A stretch of DNA of 64,000 bases from Camelus ferus (lineage: Eukaryota). The position numbers were made by a program, and so were the translations under genes. This document shows positions 4,575-61,581 of this stretch, in pieces. The notes under the pieces were generated by a model that searched no databases, had not been told where the DNA came from, and saw nothing but the letters and a program-made list of their open reading frames with translations. The stretch spans positions 12,464,001 through 12,528,000 of the forward strand of contig NC_045696.1 of the NCBI RefSeq assembly GCF_009834535.1. The letters are read 5' to 3'. The stretch's first letter is position 1, and every line of letters starts with the position of its first letter.

Positions 4575-4934
4575 CAAATGTCTGTGTCCCTCCAAAATTC
4601 ACATGTTGAAACTCTACGTCAGAATGTGTTGGTGTTAGGAGGAGGGGCTTTGGGGATGCAGTTAGGATTAGATGAGGTCCTGGAGCAGCACCCTCATGAA
4701 TGGGATGAGCACCCTTTTAAGAGCTCCAAGAAAGCTTGCTTCTCTCTGCCCTTTGGGGCTACAATGAGAAGCTGGCCGTCTGCATCCTGGAAGCGGCTCC
4801 TCACCAGAACCCAATCACGCTGGCATTCGGATCTTGGACTTTCAGCCTCCAGAACTGTGAGAAATAAATTTCTGTTGTTTACAAATCACTCCATCTGTGG
4901 TATTTGTTACAGCGGCCCGGATGGATTAAGATAC
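4575..4934 (+). mobile_element. MaLR solo LTR (MLT1-like)
   Basis: 'tgtgtccctccaaaattcacatgttgaa' ... 'cagcctccagaactgtgagaaataaatttctgttgttt' ... 'taagataca' are MLT1 hallmarks; explains ORF 4578-4946. Confidence 0.85.
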
Positions 4935-25740: not shown

Positions 25741-25893
25741 GGAGGAGGGTATAGCTCCATGGTAAAGCATGTGCCTAGCATGCATAAGGTCCTGGGTTCA
25801 ATCCCTGGTACCTCCATCAAATACTTGATAAATTAATTAATTAATTAACAAACAAACCTAATTACTCCCCCCCCAAAAAAATTTTAAAAAATA
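25741..25893 (+). mobile_element. tRNA-derived SINE (Vic-1-like)
   Basis: 'ggagggtatagctccatggtaaagcatgtgcctagcatgcataaggtcctgggttcaatccctggtacctcc' plus tail with 'aacctaattactcccccccc'; 'taggag' on both flanks. Confidence 0.9.
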
Positions 25894-34858: not shown

Positions 34859-34896
<38 letters not shown>

Positions 34897-35562
34897 TATA
34901 TATATTTCCATATTCTTTTTCATTGTAGGCTATTACAAGATATTGAATATAGTTTCCTTTGCTGTACAGCAGGACCTTGCTGTTTATCTATTTTATATAT
35001 AGTAGTTAGTATCTGCAAATCCCAAACTCCCAATTTATCTTTCCACCTGCCTTTTCCCTCCAGTAACCACAAGTTTGTTTTTTATGACTTTGAGTCTGTT
35101 TCTGTTTTGTAAATAACTTCACTTGTCTCATTTTTTTAGATTCCACATATAAGTGATATATGGTATTTTTCTTTTTCTTTCTGGCTTACTTCACTTAGAA
35201 TGACAATCTCCAGGTCCATCCATGTTGCTGCAAATGGCATTATTTTATTCCTTTTTATAGCTGAATAGTATTATACACACACACACAGGTACACAGACAC
35301 GTACACGCACGTACTGTATCTTTTTTATCCAATCATCTGTTGATGGGCATTTAGGTTGCTTCTTGACTATTGTAAACAGTGCTATTATGAACATTGAGGT
35401 GCATGTATCTTTTTGAATTAGAGTTCCCTACAGATATATGCCCAAGATTGGGATTGCTGGATCATATGGTAAATCTATTTTCAATTTTTTAAGGAATCTC
35501 CATACTGTTTTCCATAAGGGCTGAACCAAACTACATTCCCACCAACAGTGTAGGATGTTTCC
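34782..35562 (-). mobile_element. 5'-truncated younger L1 with TSD
   Basis: Antisense L1 3' end ('ttttagattccacatataagtgata', 'ccatccatgttgctgcaaatggcatta'); 18-bp TSD cagaagac(a/g)gtgattctt at 34764-34781 and 35563-35580. Confidence 0.92.
34858..34905 (+). repeat. Compound (TA)n(CA)n(TA)n microsatellite inside L1
   Basis: Directly visible. Confidence 0.95.
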
Positions 35563-40512: not shown

Positions 40513-43461
40513 TGCTCCATTTGTCCAAAGAAATCAATAAGTGAAAGCAATCCTGCTTCAGTAGATATCTGAGGCCCTTGGTAAATGCACTTCTTTATGT
40601 TTAGTTCAGGCATATGATAATGAGTTTGGAATATCCAAATGTCATTGAACTCAGTCTAATGCATGTACTATTAGCAGAGTAAGATATCAATGAAAAATTG
40701 TATGAATCCAATGATCATTAGAAAATATGTTTAGTTCCATGATTAGCAAAAAAAAAAAAAAAATCCAAATGAGTTTGTCCCTTGGTGTCATCAGCTTTAG
40801 GTCAGAAAAGACCAGTAAGATAGGACAGGTCCAGACATTGACCTATATTGAAACTGTGTTCACTGATTGGAATTGTTGTTGACCAATGAACGGTATTTGA
40901 AAATTAATAACAAAATGATGTCGTAAGTATGGAGTGAGCAGAAGGTAGAGCAACTGTGAAGAGAAAGATCAGATGAAACTCCAGAAAACATGTGGTTTTA
41001 TGTTATAGAAGATTGCAGTGATCTCACTGTCTTGCTCTAAGGCAATCAGAACAGGTCCTTATAATGCAAGAGGACTGAGTTAGCTATGTATCACAATCAA
41101 TATCCTTATAAGCCATTAATTTAATCATTTTAAAAGCAGCCAAATATTTTGTGCAAGTAGGGATCATTTCTGCCTTCAGACATCTGAAAAGAGGTGTGTC
41201 CACTAACCGCCTCCATGGTTATCTCCAGCAGTTTCTTTCTCTGCTTAGTTACTCACTTTGGAAGGGATGAAGACTTAATATTAGCCTCAGACAAATGAGG
41301 ATCTTTTTAATTATGGAATATGCACAAAAGTTAGAGATCAATGAAGCTGTTTTTTTCACCCCAGGTCAAGGAAAGCATAGGAATTGATTCTGAGAAGATA
41401 TTCTCTCAAGGAGAACTTATCAGGACCAACTTCCATCTATTTAGAAAGAAAAAAGTATTATTGACTTTTAACATACTTTTCTTAACTTTCCATTTTCCTG
41501 GAATCCCAGGGCTGCCCAAACCAAAACCTTTGTACAGGTTCAGAATTATTGGAACAAGTAAACAAAATCTGCTTGCAATTCATAATTTTAGTATAAAGGG
41601 CCCAATTTTGGAAAAGTGGTTCTAAACATTAGATTAATAGGTTAGATGTTCTTTGCAACAGGATTATTGTAGGTTTCTGAAAACACAAGTTTGGCAGCCT
41701 AGAATTCCTGATGCCAAGGATATGAAATGCTGAATATAAAAGCCAATTTCCAACTGCTTACTTCATTATCTGCTTGGCTCATGTACGTAGAAGATATGAA
41801 CTTGCTGAAAACATTGTCTTTTACTCTCATCACTCAACTCATGCTGCTTGAATACCCATCTTTAGAGTTTGTTGAATTCACCTGGAAGCTAATTCACTTT
41901 GAATTCAAATATATGCCAAAGAATTTCAATCAGCAGACATACTACAGAAAAATTACAGGTGTTCCTAAGGCACATTGTGGGCTTAATATGTCTTAGAAAT
42001 ATCTCTTTTTTTTTCTATTGAATTATTGTGTCAAAATGTTCTACATTAGGAAATACCCAGGTTCCTTGCCTTCCTCTATTTGTCTTCTCTATTTTTCACC
42101 AATTTCAGTGAGTACAATAAACTTTTCATTTGGAATCTGTTTTTGACAAACCAGCACAGGGAGAAAAATGAACGAATAAAAACTATTTGGCTAGATGCAA
42201 TTGCTTGTAACCATGATAGTGCCTAAATGCACAAAAATGTGCTATAAATAAGAGAAAAGTGAATCTGACCCTAAGTTTTTTTTTTTTTAATAATCCATTT
42301 GGATTCACTGAAGAGGGTAGGGAACATGTTTTCTTTTCCAAATCCATCTCAACTGAATTAAAAATTCTTCAAGGACAGGCAGCAGCTCAGACCAGTGGAT
42401 AGAACAGTGGAGATTTGAAAAAAAGATCAGAATAGTAGCCCAGGTATTTAAATCACCTTGTGACCTCTGCCAGGACTTCTTCTCTCTAGGCCTCAAGTTC
42501 CCATCTGAAAGATAAGGAGAATATTTGCTAGACGAGGTTGTGATGTGAATTGAAAATCTAAGCATCTGATCCATAGTAAGTTTTCAACAAGTATTAGCTC
42601 CCCATGAGCTGTAAAACCCAGCTCAGGGTTTTACATAGTAGATATTCAATAGATGTTTCCTGAACAAGATAAAACTGTAAACTATATCCATACTATGAAA
42701 TATCTATTATTATATAAAGAATAATTACCATTAGTGAAAGTTTTTGCAACTTCAGATTCTTCTAAACTGTAGATTGCTTCCAATTTCTCATTTGTACTTA
42801 CCCTATCTTCCTACTCACCCCTAAATCAAAATGGAAAATTAGTGCATAATTACTACCTATTGAAATGTATGAAAATTTACATTTTATATACCCATCTGGG
42901 TTTAATCAGGTAGACAAAGTCAACAACAGCATTATGGAAAAATAGACGGAATATAGAAATTAGGATTCCACAAATATAGAAAGATGCAGTATTGAAGGTT
43001 TTAGAAGATAGTGGCTGGAGCATCTCTCAGCTAGAGAGGGGAATAAGCCATGTATCCCTAGGAAGTTTGAGAAGCTGACACAACCATGAATCTGAACGAA
43101 GGTCCAACCATGGACCTTGTGGAGAGGTCTGAAAACCATTCCCTCTGCCACAACCTAGAGAAATCACGATCTGGGAAAGTCCAAAAAAAGTGCCAGAACC
43201 ACTAAGTGGAAGTTTATGGAGAGGTCTCGACACTAGCTGCATCTAGCCATCAGGACCTTCCCAGGATAAAACCTTCTATTTCATGTCCACCTGCCAAATC
43301 TCACTCAAGTTCCTCTCGTGGCAAATTCTAACTTAGCCCCACACAGGGAATGGAATCTAAGGGAAATGCTCATTGCCTTCAAAGGGGCTGTTGGTGATGG
43401 TGCCAAGTAAAAACAACCAACCCAGCACAGTCGATGCAATACTTTTGTTAACTCATTAACT

Positions 43462-43894
43462 CAGCATCCATCCTATTACTATAACCATCTTAAACCTCCC
43501 AGTGAAGACAATGACGTCATGCTTCCACCTAAACTAACGCAACTATCCTTCATACAGCCAATGACATGCTAGTCATTCAACAGAAGAAAAGACAGACAAA
43601 AGGTCCATATGACTCCCAATTCTTTACAATACAAAGCAAGATAAGTCCATTGTCCAGAGGCAATGTGAAACAAGGACTTCAGTGTAAGAAAGACCCAGGT
43701 GAAAATCCTGGCTCTCCTACTGGACCATTGTGTGACCTCTGATAAGTTATGTATCTCTCAGAGCCTTAACTTCTCCAACTGAAAAATTAGAAACCCTATC
43801 TTCTAAGATAGGTATTAGCAACATGAAATGCCTCACTCATAAAAAGTGCTCAGCAAGTCTTAACTTTTATAAATATTTATTTTAAGTGGCATGG
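43462..43894 (+). repeat. Source copy of a 433-bp exact direct repeat
   Basis: Identical on line-by-line comparison to 52292-52724 (offset 8830); includes a MIR fragment at about 43670-43865. Confidence 0.97.
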
Positions 43895-45143
43895 ATAAGT
43901 AAACATTTCTTGCTGATGACCTTTCCTGATGCTCAACAGCAAATTAAATTGTTTTCATATCCAAGTATGTATATGGTTGTATACTGCATAAACTTTCTAA
44001 AAGAAACGTTTGATGAAATTTTCAAAATTAAATCATCAATTTCTTGTTCCTGCTTCAGTAGTCGAAATATAAAGATACAGAAGAGTGTGATTAAACAGTA
44101 AAGAGTTGGCAGCAAAATGTAAGAAAAGGAAAGGCTAAAGATCTGAATTGTATACAGATTGCAAGATCAGCTCCTGAATAATAGGAAATTAATTGTTTAC
44201 TCAAAAAGGCAGCAGTCCTGTTGTATCTAAATTACGCCAGGGGTGACTTCAGAGAGGAATCAGCTTTCCCTACTACAAAGATCTAACCCATAGGTTTGTA
44301 ACTCAATGCTCTAACTTCATGGTCAGAGGAGGAAAGTCTCAACTCAATTATCCTACCAGAAAACACAAATTTGTTGACACTGGCAGGCTACAATACCCTG
44401 AAAATTTTAAGTGGAGAAAAAGACCAAAAAAAAAATCTGTGGGAGTCAGAATACTTGAGATGTATCTCTTCATAACTTGGATGGTTATTCTTTTATTTGG
44501 ACAAAGCATACTGAAGGTTTTTCAATGTTTGTATTGCAACTCATCCATACTTATGATATAATATCCAAAAGGCAGCCAGAAATCCCCACTTTTAAGGCTG
44601 CCAACCACAAAAAATTACTTAGCACAACAATGATCTTTCTTAACCATAAATGACGTTATCTTAGGCCAAACTTCCTAGATAGACTTGGATTGAAACTGTT
44701 TTGTACCCTAGGGCTATTGGGGGTGTAACATGCAAATTGAGAGAGGGGTGAAGTCAAACACAAAATGTAAGTGAATTAACTCTTCAAACACCTCAAATTT
44801 TTAATAGAATGGGACATGGACTTTTTGAACTGTAGGTCTCTGAAATTAAACAGCATTTCTTGCTATGTGTGCAAAAATCCTAGAAAGTGTAAGAGACTTA
44901 AAACAATGTTTATGATTCCAAAAAATCAAGGTTCCAAAAATATGGGTTGTGTAGACAAATTTTAAATAATCTCAGAAAAGAATTTCGCTCTAACAGTAAA
45001 ATAACAGTACTCATGGAAGAAAAATTACATTAGAGTCAAGTTACTCAAAACCCAAACACTTTGAAAACAAAGTCTCTCCTACAGGAACCCTTTCATTTTG
45101 GAACACTTCTAATGGCTGCAAACTTGTCCATCCACAGAGAAGG

Positions 45144-45178
<35 letters not shown>

Positions 45179-45210
45179 TACACACACATACATACACACA
45201 TACATACATA
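45144..45210 (+). repeat. (TA)n(CA)n/(TACA)n microsatellite
   Basis: Directly visible; source of the HTHTHT and VCVCV ORFs. Confidence 0.95.
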
Positions 45211-46399
45211 CTTCCCATTGTTTTTAATTTTACTTCCCAGGAAACTGGAAAAAAATATTTTTCTATTTGATAAGAATACCCAAAATGACTCCATGTCTTC
45301 TTTTCTCTAAGCTTAATGTGTACAATATTTCTTAATATTATTTAGGTTTCAAATCCCTTCTTTATTCTGTGTGACTTTCCTTGAAAAGATTTCAGTTTAT
45401 CAGTATCACCTTTTAAAGGTGGCATCCAAATGAAGTGTGATGAAAGAGGTGAGATCTGGTTATAGGCTCTTACCTGTCACCTCCTTGTCTCTGTGGCTTG
45501 CCTATCTACCAATGAAACCTACGGTCGAATTAGGTTTTAAGCAGACCTATTACATCATTGACTTGTCATGAGGTCATTATTAACCCAAAAAAAAAAAAAA
45601 CCCTCAGTCTTTTTCAGAGAAATATAATGTTAAGGAACATCTTGTCTCTTCTGTATTTGTTCCGTTGATGTTGAAATCATTGTAACAATTTACTTTAATC
45701 CTATTACATTTCATACTGTTAAACCTGGTCCTTTATTTCAACCTGATTCATGATCTTGATTCTGTCATCCAGTAAATTCGCTAAAACTTTCAAAGTCTGT
45801 GTTAACTCTGTGTTTCCTGAGCACACCCACAATGTTGAAAGCATAGTCTCAGACACTTACTGCACGTGACCAGACTCTCTGGCATTCAGAGATACTAATT
45901 ACTTTTCATAGATGCAACTTAGCATTCAAAGATTCACAAATTCTCCTAAATATATTACCATCCTGACCACATTTTCCTTCTTTGTCCACAAAGATATTAT
46001 CTCTGTACCATAAAAGGCTGGTATATTTTCCCCATCAATCAACCCAGAAGCTTTATTGAACAAAGAAATTAGGGAAATCTGAAAGGCCTTGTTTTAAGTG
46101 CGTTCATAATCACTTGCAGCAAGCAATTCTGGTTTTGCAAAGGGCTCAAAAGATATCTTTTAATTAATCTGAGTATTTTGTCCCAAATTGATAATCCAGC
46201 TCATCAATCCATAGTGTTCAAAATATTTGTTTTTATTTCAGGATATTCATACCTATTTTGGCAGCATTGCTCATTTCTAGGTTTTTAGCACCTCTATCAT
46301 TGCCCAAGACATTTCACAAAATGCCAAAAGAAGTTGGAATATAAAAAACCTTAGTAATGGTGCAATATATTATTAGATTTTGTTAGTGACTATATTGTC

Positions 46400-48596: not shown

Positions 48597-48768
48597 TGGG
48601 AGGGTGTGGCTCAAGTGTTAGAGTGCATGCTTACCATACACATGGTCCTTGGTTCGATCCCTAGTTCCTCCTCTAAAAAAAATAAATAAATAAGTAAACT
48701 TAATTAGCACAAGTTTATTTTAAATTTTTAAAATTAAAATCAAAAAAAAAAAAAAAAAAAAAAAAAAA
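48597..48768 (+). mobile_element. tRNA-derived SINE (Vic-1-like) with long poly-A
   Basis: 'ggggagggtgtggctcaagtgttagagtgcatgctta...ggttcgatccctagttcctcctct' followed by an A-rich tail and a pure A run. Confidence 0.9.
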
Positions 48769-50829
48769 AGGACAGTGGCTGCCCCACCAGCCGCAGACTG
48801 CAGTGTGGTAATGAGTCCAGTTCCCAGATGGCCTAATTTTCTGAGATGCCAAAAATCTGGATTTTTATGTGAAAGCTTCCAATTTCAAAATGTTGGCTCA
48901 AAAAAGTTTTAAACATTGTATAAGCCAAATGAAACACTGAGATGGGCCAAATCTAGCCTGTGGCCATGGTTTGGGACTTCTGCAGTGCAGCATGCAGACG
49001 AAAGGGGATCTGCGGGAACACCGAGACCTCAAGTATCACATCACATGGCCCATAAGAAAGAACAGCCTAGTTCAACATCGTGTGATAACCTGAATTTTAC
49101 TGCAATGTTGGCTTCTTATCTTAGGCTTTCTTTTTTTCTTTCTTTTGTTTCCTTTTCTTTGTTTCTCTTTTTGATTGTTGTCGTTGATGACGTTAAGACA
49201 AAGTCAACTTAACCTAGCATGGTCGGTCATTAAGATAATCACTTACTTCAGTGTGGAGTTAATTTAAAATGAGCACTTTAGGAGAAATAAATCAAATATA
49301 TAATTATAATTCTGAGGTTTTGGAATTGACTTCAAAAGAGTTGGCACCTCTTAAGTTTCACCGTGAGAGCAATAGTCAGTCACTGGAATATCTGGTAGGG
49401 TATGTACACTGGAGACAAATTGAAATAAACACCAACATATGTACATATATACACATATGCTGTTGTACATATAATATAATCATATATTAAATTCCATCGT
49501 CTTTGGCAGAAATTTCTGTACAGCTCTATTACAAAATAATAAAGTATATTGCAAAATAAAATGTGTAGACACTAAAACTGGAATTAAAAGTTTTGCAATA
49601 TTTGTCACTTTTCAGTAGGTTCTTTGATGGTTGATTCTTCATTTTTTTGGGTATCATAAAATCTTTTTTTCCCATATGGAAGTTTTATACATATTCCTAA
49701 GCCACATGGAGTAGACACTTTGACTTGTATGCAAAAGATTTGTGGCCTTTGCAAAGCCATTATAATTTCTCTTGTGGTGCAGATGAAGCCATAAATAAAT
49801 ATATGTATAAATAGTGTCATATGTTTCTGAGTATCTTACTTGCTCTTACTCATCAGAAGTAAATCACTACATAGGCCCACATTTTGAAGGAGCTAAAGCT
49901 AAAGGATGAAACTGTGGGTTTCATCAAATATAATATTTCTCTTCCTTTCCTACTTCCATTCAATTCGAACAAGTACTCTACCTACATTAACTACCATCAA
50001 CTATACCTGCACTGAAGTTTAAATTTATTAAAGAGGGATATTAGAGAGTATTGAAAGCATGATCTTTTTTCCTCTTAAAATCTGTCTTTTTTTATTTATG
50101 TAATCTAAAAAGAAGTTAATCACTCTGTTAGCAATCTAGCAGACTGTATCTGCAGATCTTCATCTTATGTTCTACATTTGCAGCGTGTCCTTCATGCCTA
50201 AGTCTCTAATAATACTCATTCCATAGGCTTAAATGCTCAGAAAGGAAAATGAAGTAAGCCTGTAGATTATAACAGCATTTACTAACATTGAATGTGAGAT
50301 TTTGATACCCCAAAAGGATAACTTCTTTTTATATTGATTTTATATTTACTTCGGTTTTTAAAATTAATATTTACTTATTAGAATAAATGTATAAACTTAA
50401 TTCCTTCCTAAACTTTTAGATTCAATATACAAAGCTTATTATTCCATTTATAACTCCAAAAATTATTAATGGTCATTTTTAAAGAGACTGTGATTAATTT
50501 ACAAGTACATGTAAAAATTTAGTTATTTAAGTTTCTTTAAATATTTCTTGATTGCATTTATATATTTAGGTACTTAATTGTCCAGTTTACCCGCCCCCCA
50601 AAAAAAAGAAAATTTTGCAAACCTTTAAGTAATTCTTCTGTAGGTAATAAGTTAAACATATAAATATGATAGACATCAAGTTCTCTTAAATTTTCAATAT
50701 TATTCATAAACATCAATCTTTGACCTTAAAATAACAGGTCCAAATTAATTATGTAGATTTTACATTTTGAATTAGAATTCCTTAAAGAAGTTGTGATGTG
50801 TATGTGTGTATATATATATATGTGGTGTA

Positions 50830-51499: not shown

Positions 51500-51711
51500 T
51501 CCCTGTTGTTCTCCAATGTCCCTGGATCTTTGAGTTTGTTTCCATTTGTCTGAGCTTTGACTGGAAACAGATTGGAAATCAACTTCTTACTCTGTCTCCC
51601 ACCTATCCTTTTTTTTATATATTTCGTATGTATGATTTTGGTGAGAAAATTTTAGAAAGTATTTTCTGTGTTTAACTGTTATAGTTTTGATTATTTAAGG
51701 AAATCATTCAA

Positions 51712-53385
51712 TTTTTTTAATTGAAGTATAGTTGATTTGCAATGCTGTGTTAGTTTCAGGTATACAGCAAAGTGATTCAATTATACATATACATATGCAT
51801 ATATATATTCTTTTTCAGATTCTTTTCCATTATAGGTTATTGCAAGTTATTGAATTACCTGTGCTATAAAGTAGGTCATTGTTGTCCATCTATTTTAAAT
51901 ATAGTAGCATGTATATGTTAATCACCAACTCTCAATTTATCCCTCCCCCCTGCTTCTTTCCCCTTTGGTAACCATAGTTTGTTTTCTATGTCTGTGAGTC
52001 TCTTTCTGGTTTGTAAATAAATTCATTTGTATCATTTTTTTTAGATTCTACATATAAGCAATATTATATGATATTTGTCTTTCTCTGTCTGACTTATTTC
52101 ACTTAATATGATCATCTTTAGGTCCATCCATGTTGCTGCAAATGGTATTATTTCATTCTTTTTTATGGCTGAGTAGTATTCCATTATATATTTTTTATAT
52201 ATATATCTTACATTTTCTTTATACATTCATCTGTCAATGGACATCTAGATTGCTTTCATGTGTTGACTATTGTAAATAGTGCTGCTATGAACAGCATCCA
52301 TCCTATTACTATAACCATCTTAAACCTCCCAGTGAAGACAATGACGTCATGCTTCCACCTAAACTAACGCAACTATCCTTCATACAGCCAATGACATGCT
52401 AGTCATTCAACAGAAGAAAAGACAGACAAAAGGTCCATATGACTCCCAATTCTTTACAATACAAAGCAAGATAAGTCCATTGTCCAGAGGCAATGTGAAA
52501 CAAGGACTTCAGTGTAAGAAAGACCCAGGTGAAAATCCTGGCTCTCCTACTGGACCATTGTGTGACCTCTGATAAGTTATGTATCTCTCAGAGCCTTAAC
52601 TTCTCCAACTGAAAAATTAGAAACCCTATCTTCTAAGATAGGTATTAGCAACATGAAATGCCTCACTCATAAAAAGTGCTCAGCAAGTCTTAACTTTTAT
52701 AAATATTTATTTTAAGTGGCATGGGGTGCATGTATCTTTTCAAATTAGAGTTTTCTCTGGACATATGCCCAGGAGTGGGATTGCTGGATCATATGGTAAC
52801 TCTATTTTTAGTTTTTTAAGGAACATTCATATTGTCCTCCATAGTGGCTGCACCAGTTTTCATTTTCACCAACAGTGTAGGAGGGTTCCTTTTTCTCCAC
52901 ACCTTCTCCAGCATTTATTATTTGTAGGCTTTTTAATGATAGTCATTCTCATTGGTGTGGAGTGATACCTCATTGTAGTTTTGATTTGCATTTTTCAAAT
53001 AATTAGTGATGTTGAGCATCTTTTCATGTGCCTGTTGGCCATCCATATGTCTTCTTCAGAAAAATGTCTATATAGGCCTTCTGCCCATTGTTTGATTTTT
53101 TTTTTTTACATTAAGCCATATAAGCTGTTTATATATTTTGGAATATATTAATCCCTTGTCAGTCTCATCATTTGCACATGTTTTCTCCCATTCCATAGGT
53201 TGTCTTTTTGTTTTGTTTATGATTTCCTTTGCTGTGCAAAAGCTTTTAAGTTTAATTAGGTCACATTTACTTATTTTTGCTTTTATTCCCATTACTCTTG
53301 GAGATGGATCAAAAATTATATTGCTGTAATTTATGTCAGAGACTGTTCTCCCTATGTTTTCCTCTGGAAGTTTTAGAGTATCCAG
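51712..53385 (-). mobile_element. 5'-truncated younger L1 (ORF2 C-terminus plus 3' UTR), split by a 433-bp insertion
   Basis: Minus ORFs 53068-53292 (DLIKLKSFCTAKEIINKTKRQPMEWEK) and 52041-52226 (MEYYSAIKKNEIIPFAATWMDL) are L1 ORF2p; same family as 34782-35562. Confidence 0.93.
52292..52724 (+). repeat. Inserted copy of the 433-bp exact direct repeat
   Basis: Identical to 43462-43894; interrupts L1 between 'gctatgaaca' and 'tggggtgcatgtatc'. Confidence 0.97.
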
Positions 53386-54629
53386 TGTTCAAATAATGTT
53401 TATTATGCTCTTAATACCAGAAAAAGAGTTGAGGTTGCTAATATATGTCTTTGGAGAACCTGACACACATAAAATCATCCTCTTCTAGGGATATTGCCTT
53501 CTTACAAAGAGTAAGTGTGATGGGTAAATAGATATAGGAACAATTTTGTAGATCAAGCTACCGTTTAACCGCTTATTGAATAGACGTGAAGTGACAAGAT
53601 CAACTAGAGGAAATAGTTAAGAACCTGTCCTCTACTAAACCATTAAATGAAGCAGAAGCCATTATGTCCCAAAGATTTAGAATAAATTTGCCCAGGTTGG
53701 AACAAAAAGTTAAAAGGGCAGTAAAAATCAGAGCAGCTTCTCTTTAGGAATGAGCGCTCTCTTGCTATATTTAAATCCTGTTTAACCATTCATCTCAGAA
53801 TGTGTATTCAGGAGAGACTATAGTTATGAGTACTTAACCAATCAATTGAGCTTGCTATGTAGGAAATAGATTGAGAGCTAAATCCATTTCAGAGATGTTC
53901 ATATTATGAAAATAAATAGGAAAATAACTAATTTTATGCAGTAATTTAAGGGTTTTAAAAAATTCTTTCTTCAAAGAGAAGTGATGAAGTGTGGAGGCCA
54001 GAAAACAGAATTTGGAATCATAAAAATCTGTCTCTGCTGTTGTGCTATCATATAGCTATGTGATTTTGTTAAGATTCAACCTCTTTGCCCATAAAAGAAG
54101 ATCATAATTTCTCTGCAAGTTTTTTATTAGAAGTAAAGCTAATATCTGTAAAATGCCTCTGTGTAGGCCCTAAATAAATACATGCTATTATTTTACACAA
54201 TTTTTTAAATTGTGACTTTACCCGGTGCAAGTTGCATCTCATTGCCATGAACTCATGGAATATGTAAAAATGTGTTGTTTCATTGGATTTTTATTCTAAT
54301 GAAGTGCTTTGCTAGAAATTGTAGAATCTGCCTTCAGGTTTCTGGGTCAAACTGAAAGGAAAAGCCATAATTTCTGTCCTCTGTTGAGAGAATTAGAAAG
54401 TGGAAACAGAAATATTTTAGACCAAAATGGTGAGGGGAGAGGAAAAGAGAGGGAGTAAAAAACAAATATTGCAAAAGATAGTCGTTCTCTGAAGGATGTC
54501 TTGTACACACATTTTACTGCAGAGATGTGGAATCTTTCTGTTCTAGGTGAAATTGGGCAATTTGCTTTTGCAAGAGGAGCATTAATATTGTTTCAAATAA
54601 AGAGGGGTAAGATGTGTTGACAACTTATT

Positions 54630-57814: not shown

Positions 57815-57941
57815 GGGGGAGGATATAGTTCAATGGTAGAGTATGTGCCTAGCATGCACGAGGTTGTGGGTTCAATCCCCGGTAATAAATAAATAGATAA
57901 ACCTAATTACCTTCCCCCCAAAAAATATTAAAGGAAAAAAA
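57815..57941 (+). mobile_element. tRNA-derived SINE (Vic-1-like)
   Basis: 'ggggaggatatagttcaatggtagagtatgtgcctagcatgcacgagg..tgggttcaatcccc' plus 'aaacctaattaccttccccc' tail. Confidence 0.9.
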
Positions 57942-61192: not shown

Positions 61193-61581
61193 TGCGTTAG
61201 TTGTCTAGAGCTGCTATAACAAAGTACCACAGATTGCATGGCTTCAATGATGGAAATGCATTGTCTCACAGTTCTGGAGGCTGAAAGTCCAAGATCAAGG
61301 TGTCAGCAGGGTTGGTTTCTTCTGAGCCTCTCTTCTTGACTTGTAAATTGCTGCCTTCTCCATGCGTCTTCATATGGTCTTCCCTCTGTAACTATCTGTG
61401 TCCTAATCTCCTTTTCTGTAAGAACATCAGTCATATGGGATTAGGGCCCACCCTATACAGACCTCACTTTAACTCAATTACCCCTTTAAAGACCCTATCT
61501 TCAAAATAGTTACATTCTGAGGTACCAAGTGTTAGGACTTCAACATATGAATTTTAGGAAAACACAGTTCAGCCCATAACA
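61193..61581 (-). mobile_element. MaLR solo LTR (MLT1-like)
   Basis: 'gctgctataacaaagtaccacaga', 'tctcacagttctggaggctgaaagtccaagatcaaggtgtcagcagg', ending 'cacagttcagcccataaca'. Confidence 0.88.

Follow-up and report, generated by a model that had tools for sequence, protein, structure and literature searches.

What might explain why a 433-nt block of non-coding DNA in Camelus ferus occurs twice, letter for letter, once in single-copy surroundings and once in the middle of a decayed L1 fragment 8.83 kb downstream? Both copies lie in the window, by which we mean the whole 64,000-nt stretch of DNA that was analysed (C1:12464001-12528000, in an assembly of 2.09 Gb and 2043 contigs). A first-pass annotation, made from the letters of the window, had read the downstream copy as a break-repair capture, produced by a template switch to a nearby locus.

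Extent, copy number and direction of the repeat

Direct comparison of the two copies gives 433 identical nucleotides out of 433 on the same strand, with a start-to-start spacing of 8830 nt and the donor upstream (Table 1). The identity stops there, the adjacent bases being mismatched at both ends, and the exact 433-bp match in the same orientation that the first-pass annotation had described is thereby reproduced without extension on either side. The repeat-family listing of the window also pairs the two copies, as family D1 (300 nt at 100%). A 20-mer scan, from which low-complexity repeats were dropped and in which words occurring at least six times were skipped, found five exact repeats of at least 20 nt in the 64-kb window, with lengths of 433, 33, 26, 24 and 20 nt. 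Because the next longest exact repeat measures only 33 nt, the 433-nt block is far beyond chance, as judged against a background rate of exact local duplicates that is estimated from this window alone. A genome-wide search for further copies, which the first-pass annotation had suggested, returned two candidates, both of them scored and both matching at 100% over positions 1-433 of the block, that is, exactly two places in 2.09 Gb. Within the window a sensitive BLAST search with the block gave no match beyond the two copies, and did not confirm the MIR fragment that the first-pass annotation had named as part of the donor. A 32-nt word of the block had zero matches in one scan of metagenome contigs.

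The surroundings of the two copies indicate the direction of copying. When the block is removed, the flanks of the downstream copy form one colinear L1, whose alignment with a sister L1 in the window crosses the junction and covers 685 columns with 76.5% identity, and the left-flank alignments to nine L1 relatives end at 52289-52294. That the block splits an L1, and that a sister L1 in the window is uninterrupted, had both been claimed beforehand; the flanks are colinear with the sister and with the nine relatives, and the sister reads ATGAA-CATTGA-GGTGCATG at the homologous site. The surroundings of the upstream copy (43000-44400) match, in the whole assembly, only themselves and the insert. 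Since the L1 flanks are colinear and the donor surroundings are single-copy, the upstream copy is the donor and the downstream copy is derived from it. About 428 nt of the inserted copy are unambiguously new, its terminal CA and TGG being equally assignable to the target.

Table 1. Positions of the repeat pair, the L1 sequences and the junction overlaps, in window coordinates
Feature	Position	Strand	Remarks
Inserted copy	52292..52724	+	Exact identity to donor; interrupts colinear L1
Donor (template)	43462..43894	+	Single-copy non-coding DNA, intact
Target L1, left part (decayed 3' fragment)	51711..52291	+	74-87% to nine L1 relatives; colinear with sister L1
Target L1, right part (same fragment)	52725..53389	+	84-86% to nine relatives
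Sister L1 in the window (reference only, outside the event)	34893..35562	+	Uninterrupted at homologous site
Left microhomology CA, common to donor and inferred L1 target	52292..52293	+	36/38 L1 copies; alignments of 6/9 relatives reach 52293-52294
Right microhomology TGG	52722..52724	+	29/38 L1 copies; right alignments of 8/9 relatives begin at 52722

Other small features lie in and around the two copies. An exact 8-nt tandem duplication (TTAACTCA twice, at 43448-43463) ends at the left boundary of the donor, and the CA that closes the second TTAACTCA unit is also the beginning of the copied block. In the 11.5 kb that were scanned, TRF found three two-copy arrays of 7-8 nt, a density at which such closeness would arise by chance in about 1-2% of cases, and the duplication may be a coincidence or may mark a slippage-prone spot. 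The block carries an 8-nt palindrome, TGACGTCA, at 52342-52349 and 43512-43519, which has been duplicated by the insertion. We take this palindrome to be the consensus cAMP-response element; one such 8-mer is expected by chance per 64 kb, and there is no other hint of a regulatory role. Between donor and target are a period-4 microsatellite at 45146-45211 (TRF units ACAC and ATAC) and a run of 28 A at 48742-48769, which are ordinary features of repeat-rich non-coding DNA. Elsewhere in the window, a tRNA-like dispersed repeat (family D4; 25741-25810 and 57815-57884, 84% alike) has the look of one of this genome's ordinary SINE families, and an inverted pair of 63 nt (4800-4862 and 61264-61326, 83% alike, sharing an exact core of 33 nt and separated by 56 kb) most likely consists of two copies from one old family of dispersed repeats.

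The junctions and the site before insertion

At the left junction GCTATGAA is followed directly by CAGCATCC, and at the right junction GGCATGG is followed directly by GGTGCATG. The interrupted L1 runs from GCTGCTATGAA into the block, which begins with CAGCATCC and ends with GGCATGG, and resumes at GGTGCATG. What stood between these two L1 halves can be estimated from other copies of the element. We surveyed the site in 38 fetched L1 loci, 36 of which matched, two of them twice, to give 38 rows (L006 and L012 were without a match). In every one of the 38 rows the spacer from ATGAA to GGTGCATG is exactly 6 nt long. It is most often CATTGG (24 rows), followed by CATTGA (seven rows) and CACTGG (two rows), with TGTTGG, CAGTGG, CATTCA, CATTAG and CGTTGG in one row each. 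The 6-mer starts with CA in 36 rows and ends with TGG in 29; nine rows lack the terminal TGG, and the sister L1 in the window has CATTGA.

The same CA and TGG are native to the donor. The block's own ends therefore supply five of the six expected L1 bases, and one T has been lost; in five of the nine relatives (L005, L007, L009, L010 and L011) the left and the right alignment are separated by a single skipped subject base. The right end can also be read as CATGG against the L1 CATTGG if one gap is allowed. For a randomly pasted segment we calculate about 6 x 4^-5 as the chance of a total of 5 nt of identity with the target, which amounts to a few in a thousand. Measured against the other L1 copies, from which the pre-insertion site is reconstructed, CA and TGG appear to be real microhomologies of 2 and 3 nt, accompanied by a 1-nt microdeletion. 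The first-pass annotation had given the junction text, the shared bases (CA at the left junction, TGG at the right one) and a target loss of at most about 1 nt. Its text is correct at both ends, the shared bases agree with most of the 38 L1 copies and of the nine aligned relatives, and the loss comes to the single T that is missing relative to those 38 copies.

Mobile elements, recombination and assembly

Could the second copy be the work of a mobile element, or a retrocopy made by the L1 machinery, of the class 1 TSIP or processed-pseudogene type? The surroundings are rich in repeats, and the block contains one reverse-strand AATAAA (TTTATT at 52706), both of which would suit such an origin. 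The expected marks are absent where they were looked for. The best target-site duplication (TSD) at the flanks of the insert is 2 nt long and offset, with none of at least 5 nt; the terminal 60 nt of either end hold no poly(A) or poly(T), the longest A run being 5 and the longest T run 4; neither AATAAA nor ATTAAA occurs on the plus strand of the block; and the insertion site, between ATGAA and CATTGG, has no TTTT/A-like site for the L1 endonuclease. A comparison for terminal inverted repeats reached a local score of only 9 over 40 nt. The block is present in 2 copies in 2.09 Gb, and its donor is embedded in single-copy DNA. L1-mediated retrocopying was rejected for want of a TSD of at least 5 nt, a poly(A) tail and a TTTT/A site, and a DNA transposon, Helitron or other mobile element was rejected on the copy number and the lack of inverted ends and of a TSD. 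Non-allelic homologous recombination was likewise rejected: donor and target flanks are without extended homology, the best local score being 9 over 60 nt in any pairing or orientation. With these marks absent, only two copies present and the flanks non-homologous, retrotransposition, mobile elements and homologous recombination are excluded as explanations, and we consider an origin as a mobile element or L1-mediated retrocopy hardly credible. That the insert has no poly-A, TSD or transposon end, and that it did not arise by retrotransposition, had been asserted beforehand; each of these features was searched for and is absent, and the defining features of retrotransposition that were tested all fail.

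A retrocopy of a small RNA was also rejected, no Rfam family reaching threshold and no tRNA being found at the donor or block. The top Rfam match over this sequence, to mir-316, reaches 21.7 bits (E 0.1) where the cut-off stands at 80, lies mostly outside the block and is at chance level. A Pfam scan of the 128 ORFs of at least 70 amino acids in the window gave zero matches above the curated cut-off and three weak sub-threshold ones, and the region looks non-coding.

An error of assembly or sequencing would mean that the second copy is absent from the animal's DNA, having entered the assembly through a wrong gap fill or through a consensus built on a chimeric molecule. Perfect identity is what such an artefactual copy would display, and the locus is without a second contig in the assembly that could serve for comparison: no alternative contig was found, and apart from itself the right flank is matched at 85% at best. 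Against an artefact, the window contains zero N and hence nothing that points to a filled gap. The L1 is resumed within one base, with overlaps of 2 and 3 nt, and this 5-nt overlap is the one calculated above to arise under random pasting only a few times in a thousand. A mis-join in an assembly graph depends on shared words of great length; a ligation chimera does not come back to its starting point, nor does it have microhomology at both ends. Public reads were compared at the level of words: 24 DNA runs from 11 studies, carrying three organism labels or unlabelled, contain between 0.52 and 0.79 of the sampled words of 52000-53000, figures that are word shares only and do not represent mapped reads. 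The best run stands at 0.79 and five runs from four studies at 0.74, the best falling about 6 of 114 words above these. This gap is close to the contribution of the junctions, both of which together are spanned by about seven sampled words, but two private SNPs would give an equal gap, and the shares are given no weight here. Taking both sides together, we regard an artefact as improbable; should the copy prove to be one, it would point to a fault in the assembly.

Copying, age and relation to published insertions

Very probably, the second copy belongs to the general class of templated insertions. More specifically, we think it probable, with some room for doubt, that it is a single young DNA-templated insertion, a dispersed direct duplication in which microhomology primed the copying of a template close by while a break was repaired or a fork restarted. 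The inserted sequence has its counterpart at another place in this genome, where the donor has been retained, both places being in the assembly. The insert carries the features of such an event at its junctions, namely microhomology and microdeletion, as judged from other L1 copies, and it has no TSD, poly(A) or endonuclease motif. Both junctions are known from this one assembly, and they are the scar of error-prone repair or replication provided that there is no assembly error. The break-repair capture from a nearby locus proposed by the first-pass annotation fits the microhomologies, the 1-nt loss, the colinear L1 and the retained donor, and every testable part of that earlier reading agreed with our results.

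The event could have begun with a break, or with a collapsed or stalled fork, in the old L1 fragment between ...ATGAACA and TTGGGGTG.... A free 3' end terminating in CA would then have paired with the CA at 43462-43463, the template being 8.83 kb upstream, on that same DNA molecule, its sister chromatid or its homologue, and about 430 nt would have been accurately copied in the same orientation. On release of the new strand, its TGG would have annealed to the TGG across the break, one T would have been trimmed, and the gap would have been filled and sealed. A mirror path, with synthesis from the other end, would give an identical product. In that product the donor is unchanged and non-coding DNA has gained a net 427 nt, a gain that is neutral and has no indicated function. 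We infer this order of steps from the product, and equally the choice among SDSA-like synthesis, a fork template switch, capture of a free fragment and an RNA template; primed synthesis, free-fragment capture, a cDNA patch and a fork switch are inseparable by sequence alone.

The fidelity of the copy may bear on the enzyme. Because there are zero copying errors in 433 nt, an accurate, processive polymerase, as in D-loop or BIR-type synthesis, is weakly favoured over polymerase theta. [quoted passage not shown] Two successive microhomology searches flanking a copied stretch are what TMEJ would share with the present insert; its templates lie near the breakpoints, unlike the 433 nt copied here from 8830 nt away (as characterized in the cited part of PMC11724358). 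In the same portion of that work, a GDBr survey of the human pangenome counts 56222 complex substitutions in human assemblies, 6205 of which bear this templated signature with two microhomologies (PMC11724358). Polymerase theta end joining with templated insertion was rejected as the source of this insert: the microhomology feature is present, and the short, adjacent template is not.

A different source of the same DNA would be a free fragment of about 430 nt, either a displaced or over-replicated flap or an excised piece later re-synthesised, that NHEJ or alternative end joining ligated into a double-strand break within the L1, with the terminal matches of 2-3 nt used for alignment. The anatomy expected of primed synthesis would be expected here as well, and end joining also yields microhomologies of 2 and 3 nt. 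Local and distant insertions at breaks in yeast range from a few nucleotides to more than 1 megabase, with 0-20 nt of microhomology, a range within which 2 and 3 nt fall, and NHEJ capture of displaced fragments is a model put forward in the sections of the yeast work cited here (PMC11724301). Against capture, the captured fragment must have been an extra copy because the donor is intact, and microhomology at both ends somewhat exceeds what blunt capture needs. We give free-fragment capture a small but appreciable probability.

The patch might also have been templated by RNA, in the strict class 2 manner, if an unspliced transcript running through the donor had been reverse-transcribed and the cDNA had patched a break lying 8.8 kb downstream within the donor's own transcription unit. 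Donor and insert have the same orientation on one strand, as this would require. Class 2 TSIPs are likewise without TSD or poly(A) and have microdeletion and microhomology, and the experimental inserts are, in the parts of the study referred to here, enriched in transcribed sequence and reduced by reverse-transcriptase inhibitors (PMC5110952). Against an RNA template, the window has no gene signal (0 of 128 ORFs above the Pfam cut-off) and no RNA family at threshold; most donors of the published TSIs come from other chromosomes, and closeness in cis is the bias to be expected of DNA template switching. An RNA-templated patch is, in our judgement, distinctly improbable. A very recent, still polymorphic germline event patched from the nascent transcript of its own transcription unit is a slimmer prospect again, which we mention as speculation. 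If true, it would be RNA-templated break repair in cis in the mammalian germline, and a natural case in which DNA- and RNA-templated patching could be separated with population and RNA data.

The age of the DNA-templated insertion that we favour is constrained by the identity of the two copies. Zero differences in 433 nt place a 95% upper bound of about 0.7% on their divergence. Mammalian neutral rates are 1-2.2 x 10^-9 per site per year. From the zero differences and these rates, the insertion is younger than about 1.6-3.5 million years, absent gene conversion; the event is recent and need not be polymorphic. Gene conversion could act on direct repeats of 433 nt separated by 8.8 kb, and an older insertion or duplication could have been kept identical by it, in which case the identity would be no proof of youth. 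Against this, there are zero mismatches and the identity reaches the last base at both ends, and conversion tracts rarely span the whole of a short homology together with its edges. We judge it very improbable that an older copy has been homogenized in this way; gene conversion would in any case alter only the dating, because it leaves the origin of the copy unexplained.

How does a young DNA-templated insertion of this size compare with known systems? It is a fresh example of a kind of mutation that is well described in print, one to which class 2 templated-sequence insertions and MMBIR/FoSTeS patches also belong; we take MMBIR and FoSTeS here as names for microhomology-mediated template switching. 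In the class 2 TSIPs of Onozawa and Aplan, as in the present case, a non-repeat genomic sequence is copied to a new place, the donor is intact, TSD, poly(A) and an L1-endonuclease site are lacking, and the junctions have microdeletion and microhomology; the experimental inserts are given, in the part of the report cited, as 73-414 bp with a median of 191, so that 433 nt is within reach (PMC5110952). That part describes their donors as "distant", in most cases on a different chromosome, and argues for a passage through RNA (PMC5110952), unlike the cis donor here, which lies 8.83 kb away in the same orientation and carries no hint of RNA. Polymorphism is part of the name of that class, whereas the present insert is known from one assembly.

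MMBIR/FoSTeS template switching resembles the present insertion in its nearby template and in both switches occurring at short microhomology, here 2 and 3 nt. Germline MMB-TI events, in the pages of the study drawn on here, have 2-12 nt of microhomology at 80% of 103 junctions and are inherited germline variants without larger rearrangement (PMC8421209). The MMB-TI detector is described there as built for inverted copies, with templates within 100 bp and a length of at most one read, in contrast to the direct copy of 433 nt from 8.8 kb away (PMC8421209). A cluster of extra mutations or a second template, as in MMBIR/FoSTeS, is not seen here. The "bridges" of templated insertions in the PCAWG classification of structural variants in cancer are small templates (<1 kb) that return to the host chromosome with a gap (PMC7025897). 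The present insert has the form of a bridge or local jump, with two junctions, one template of less than 1 kb, a return with a small gap (1 nt) and a gain in template copy number; the bridges are, going by the same extract, somatic events in tumours, usually of lower resolution and often inter-chromosomal (PMC7025897). The camel insertion is presumably germline, since it is fixed in a genome assembly.

In itself the insertion has little importance: it is a patch in a dead L1, with no detectable gene or RNA family nearby and no functional hint. It is, in addition, a very clean natural specimen of its kind: one template, base-resolved junctions, a target that can be reconstructed from L1, zero copying errors and a donor in cis. 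In size and distance (433 nt, 8.8 kb) it falls between the short local patches (PMC8421209) and the inter-chromosomal donors (PMC5110952) that the published catalogues, in the portions cited, mostly cover. If it is polymorphic, it would provide a simple presence/absence marker and a data point on how breaks are mended in the mammalian germline.
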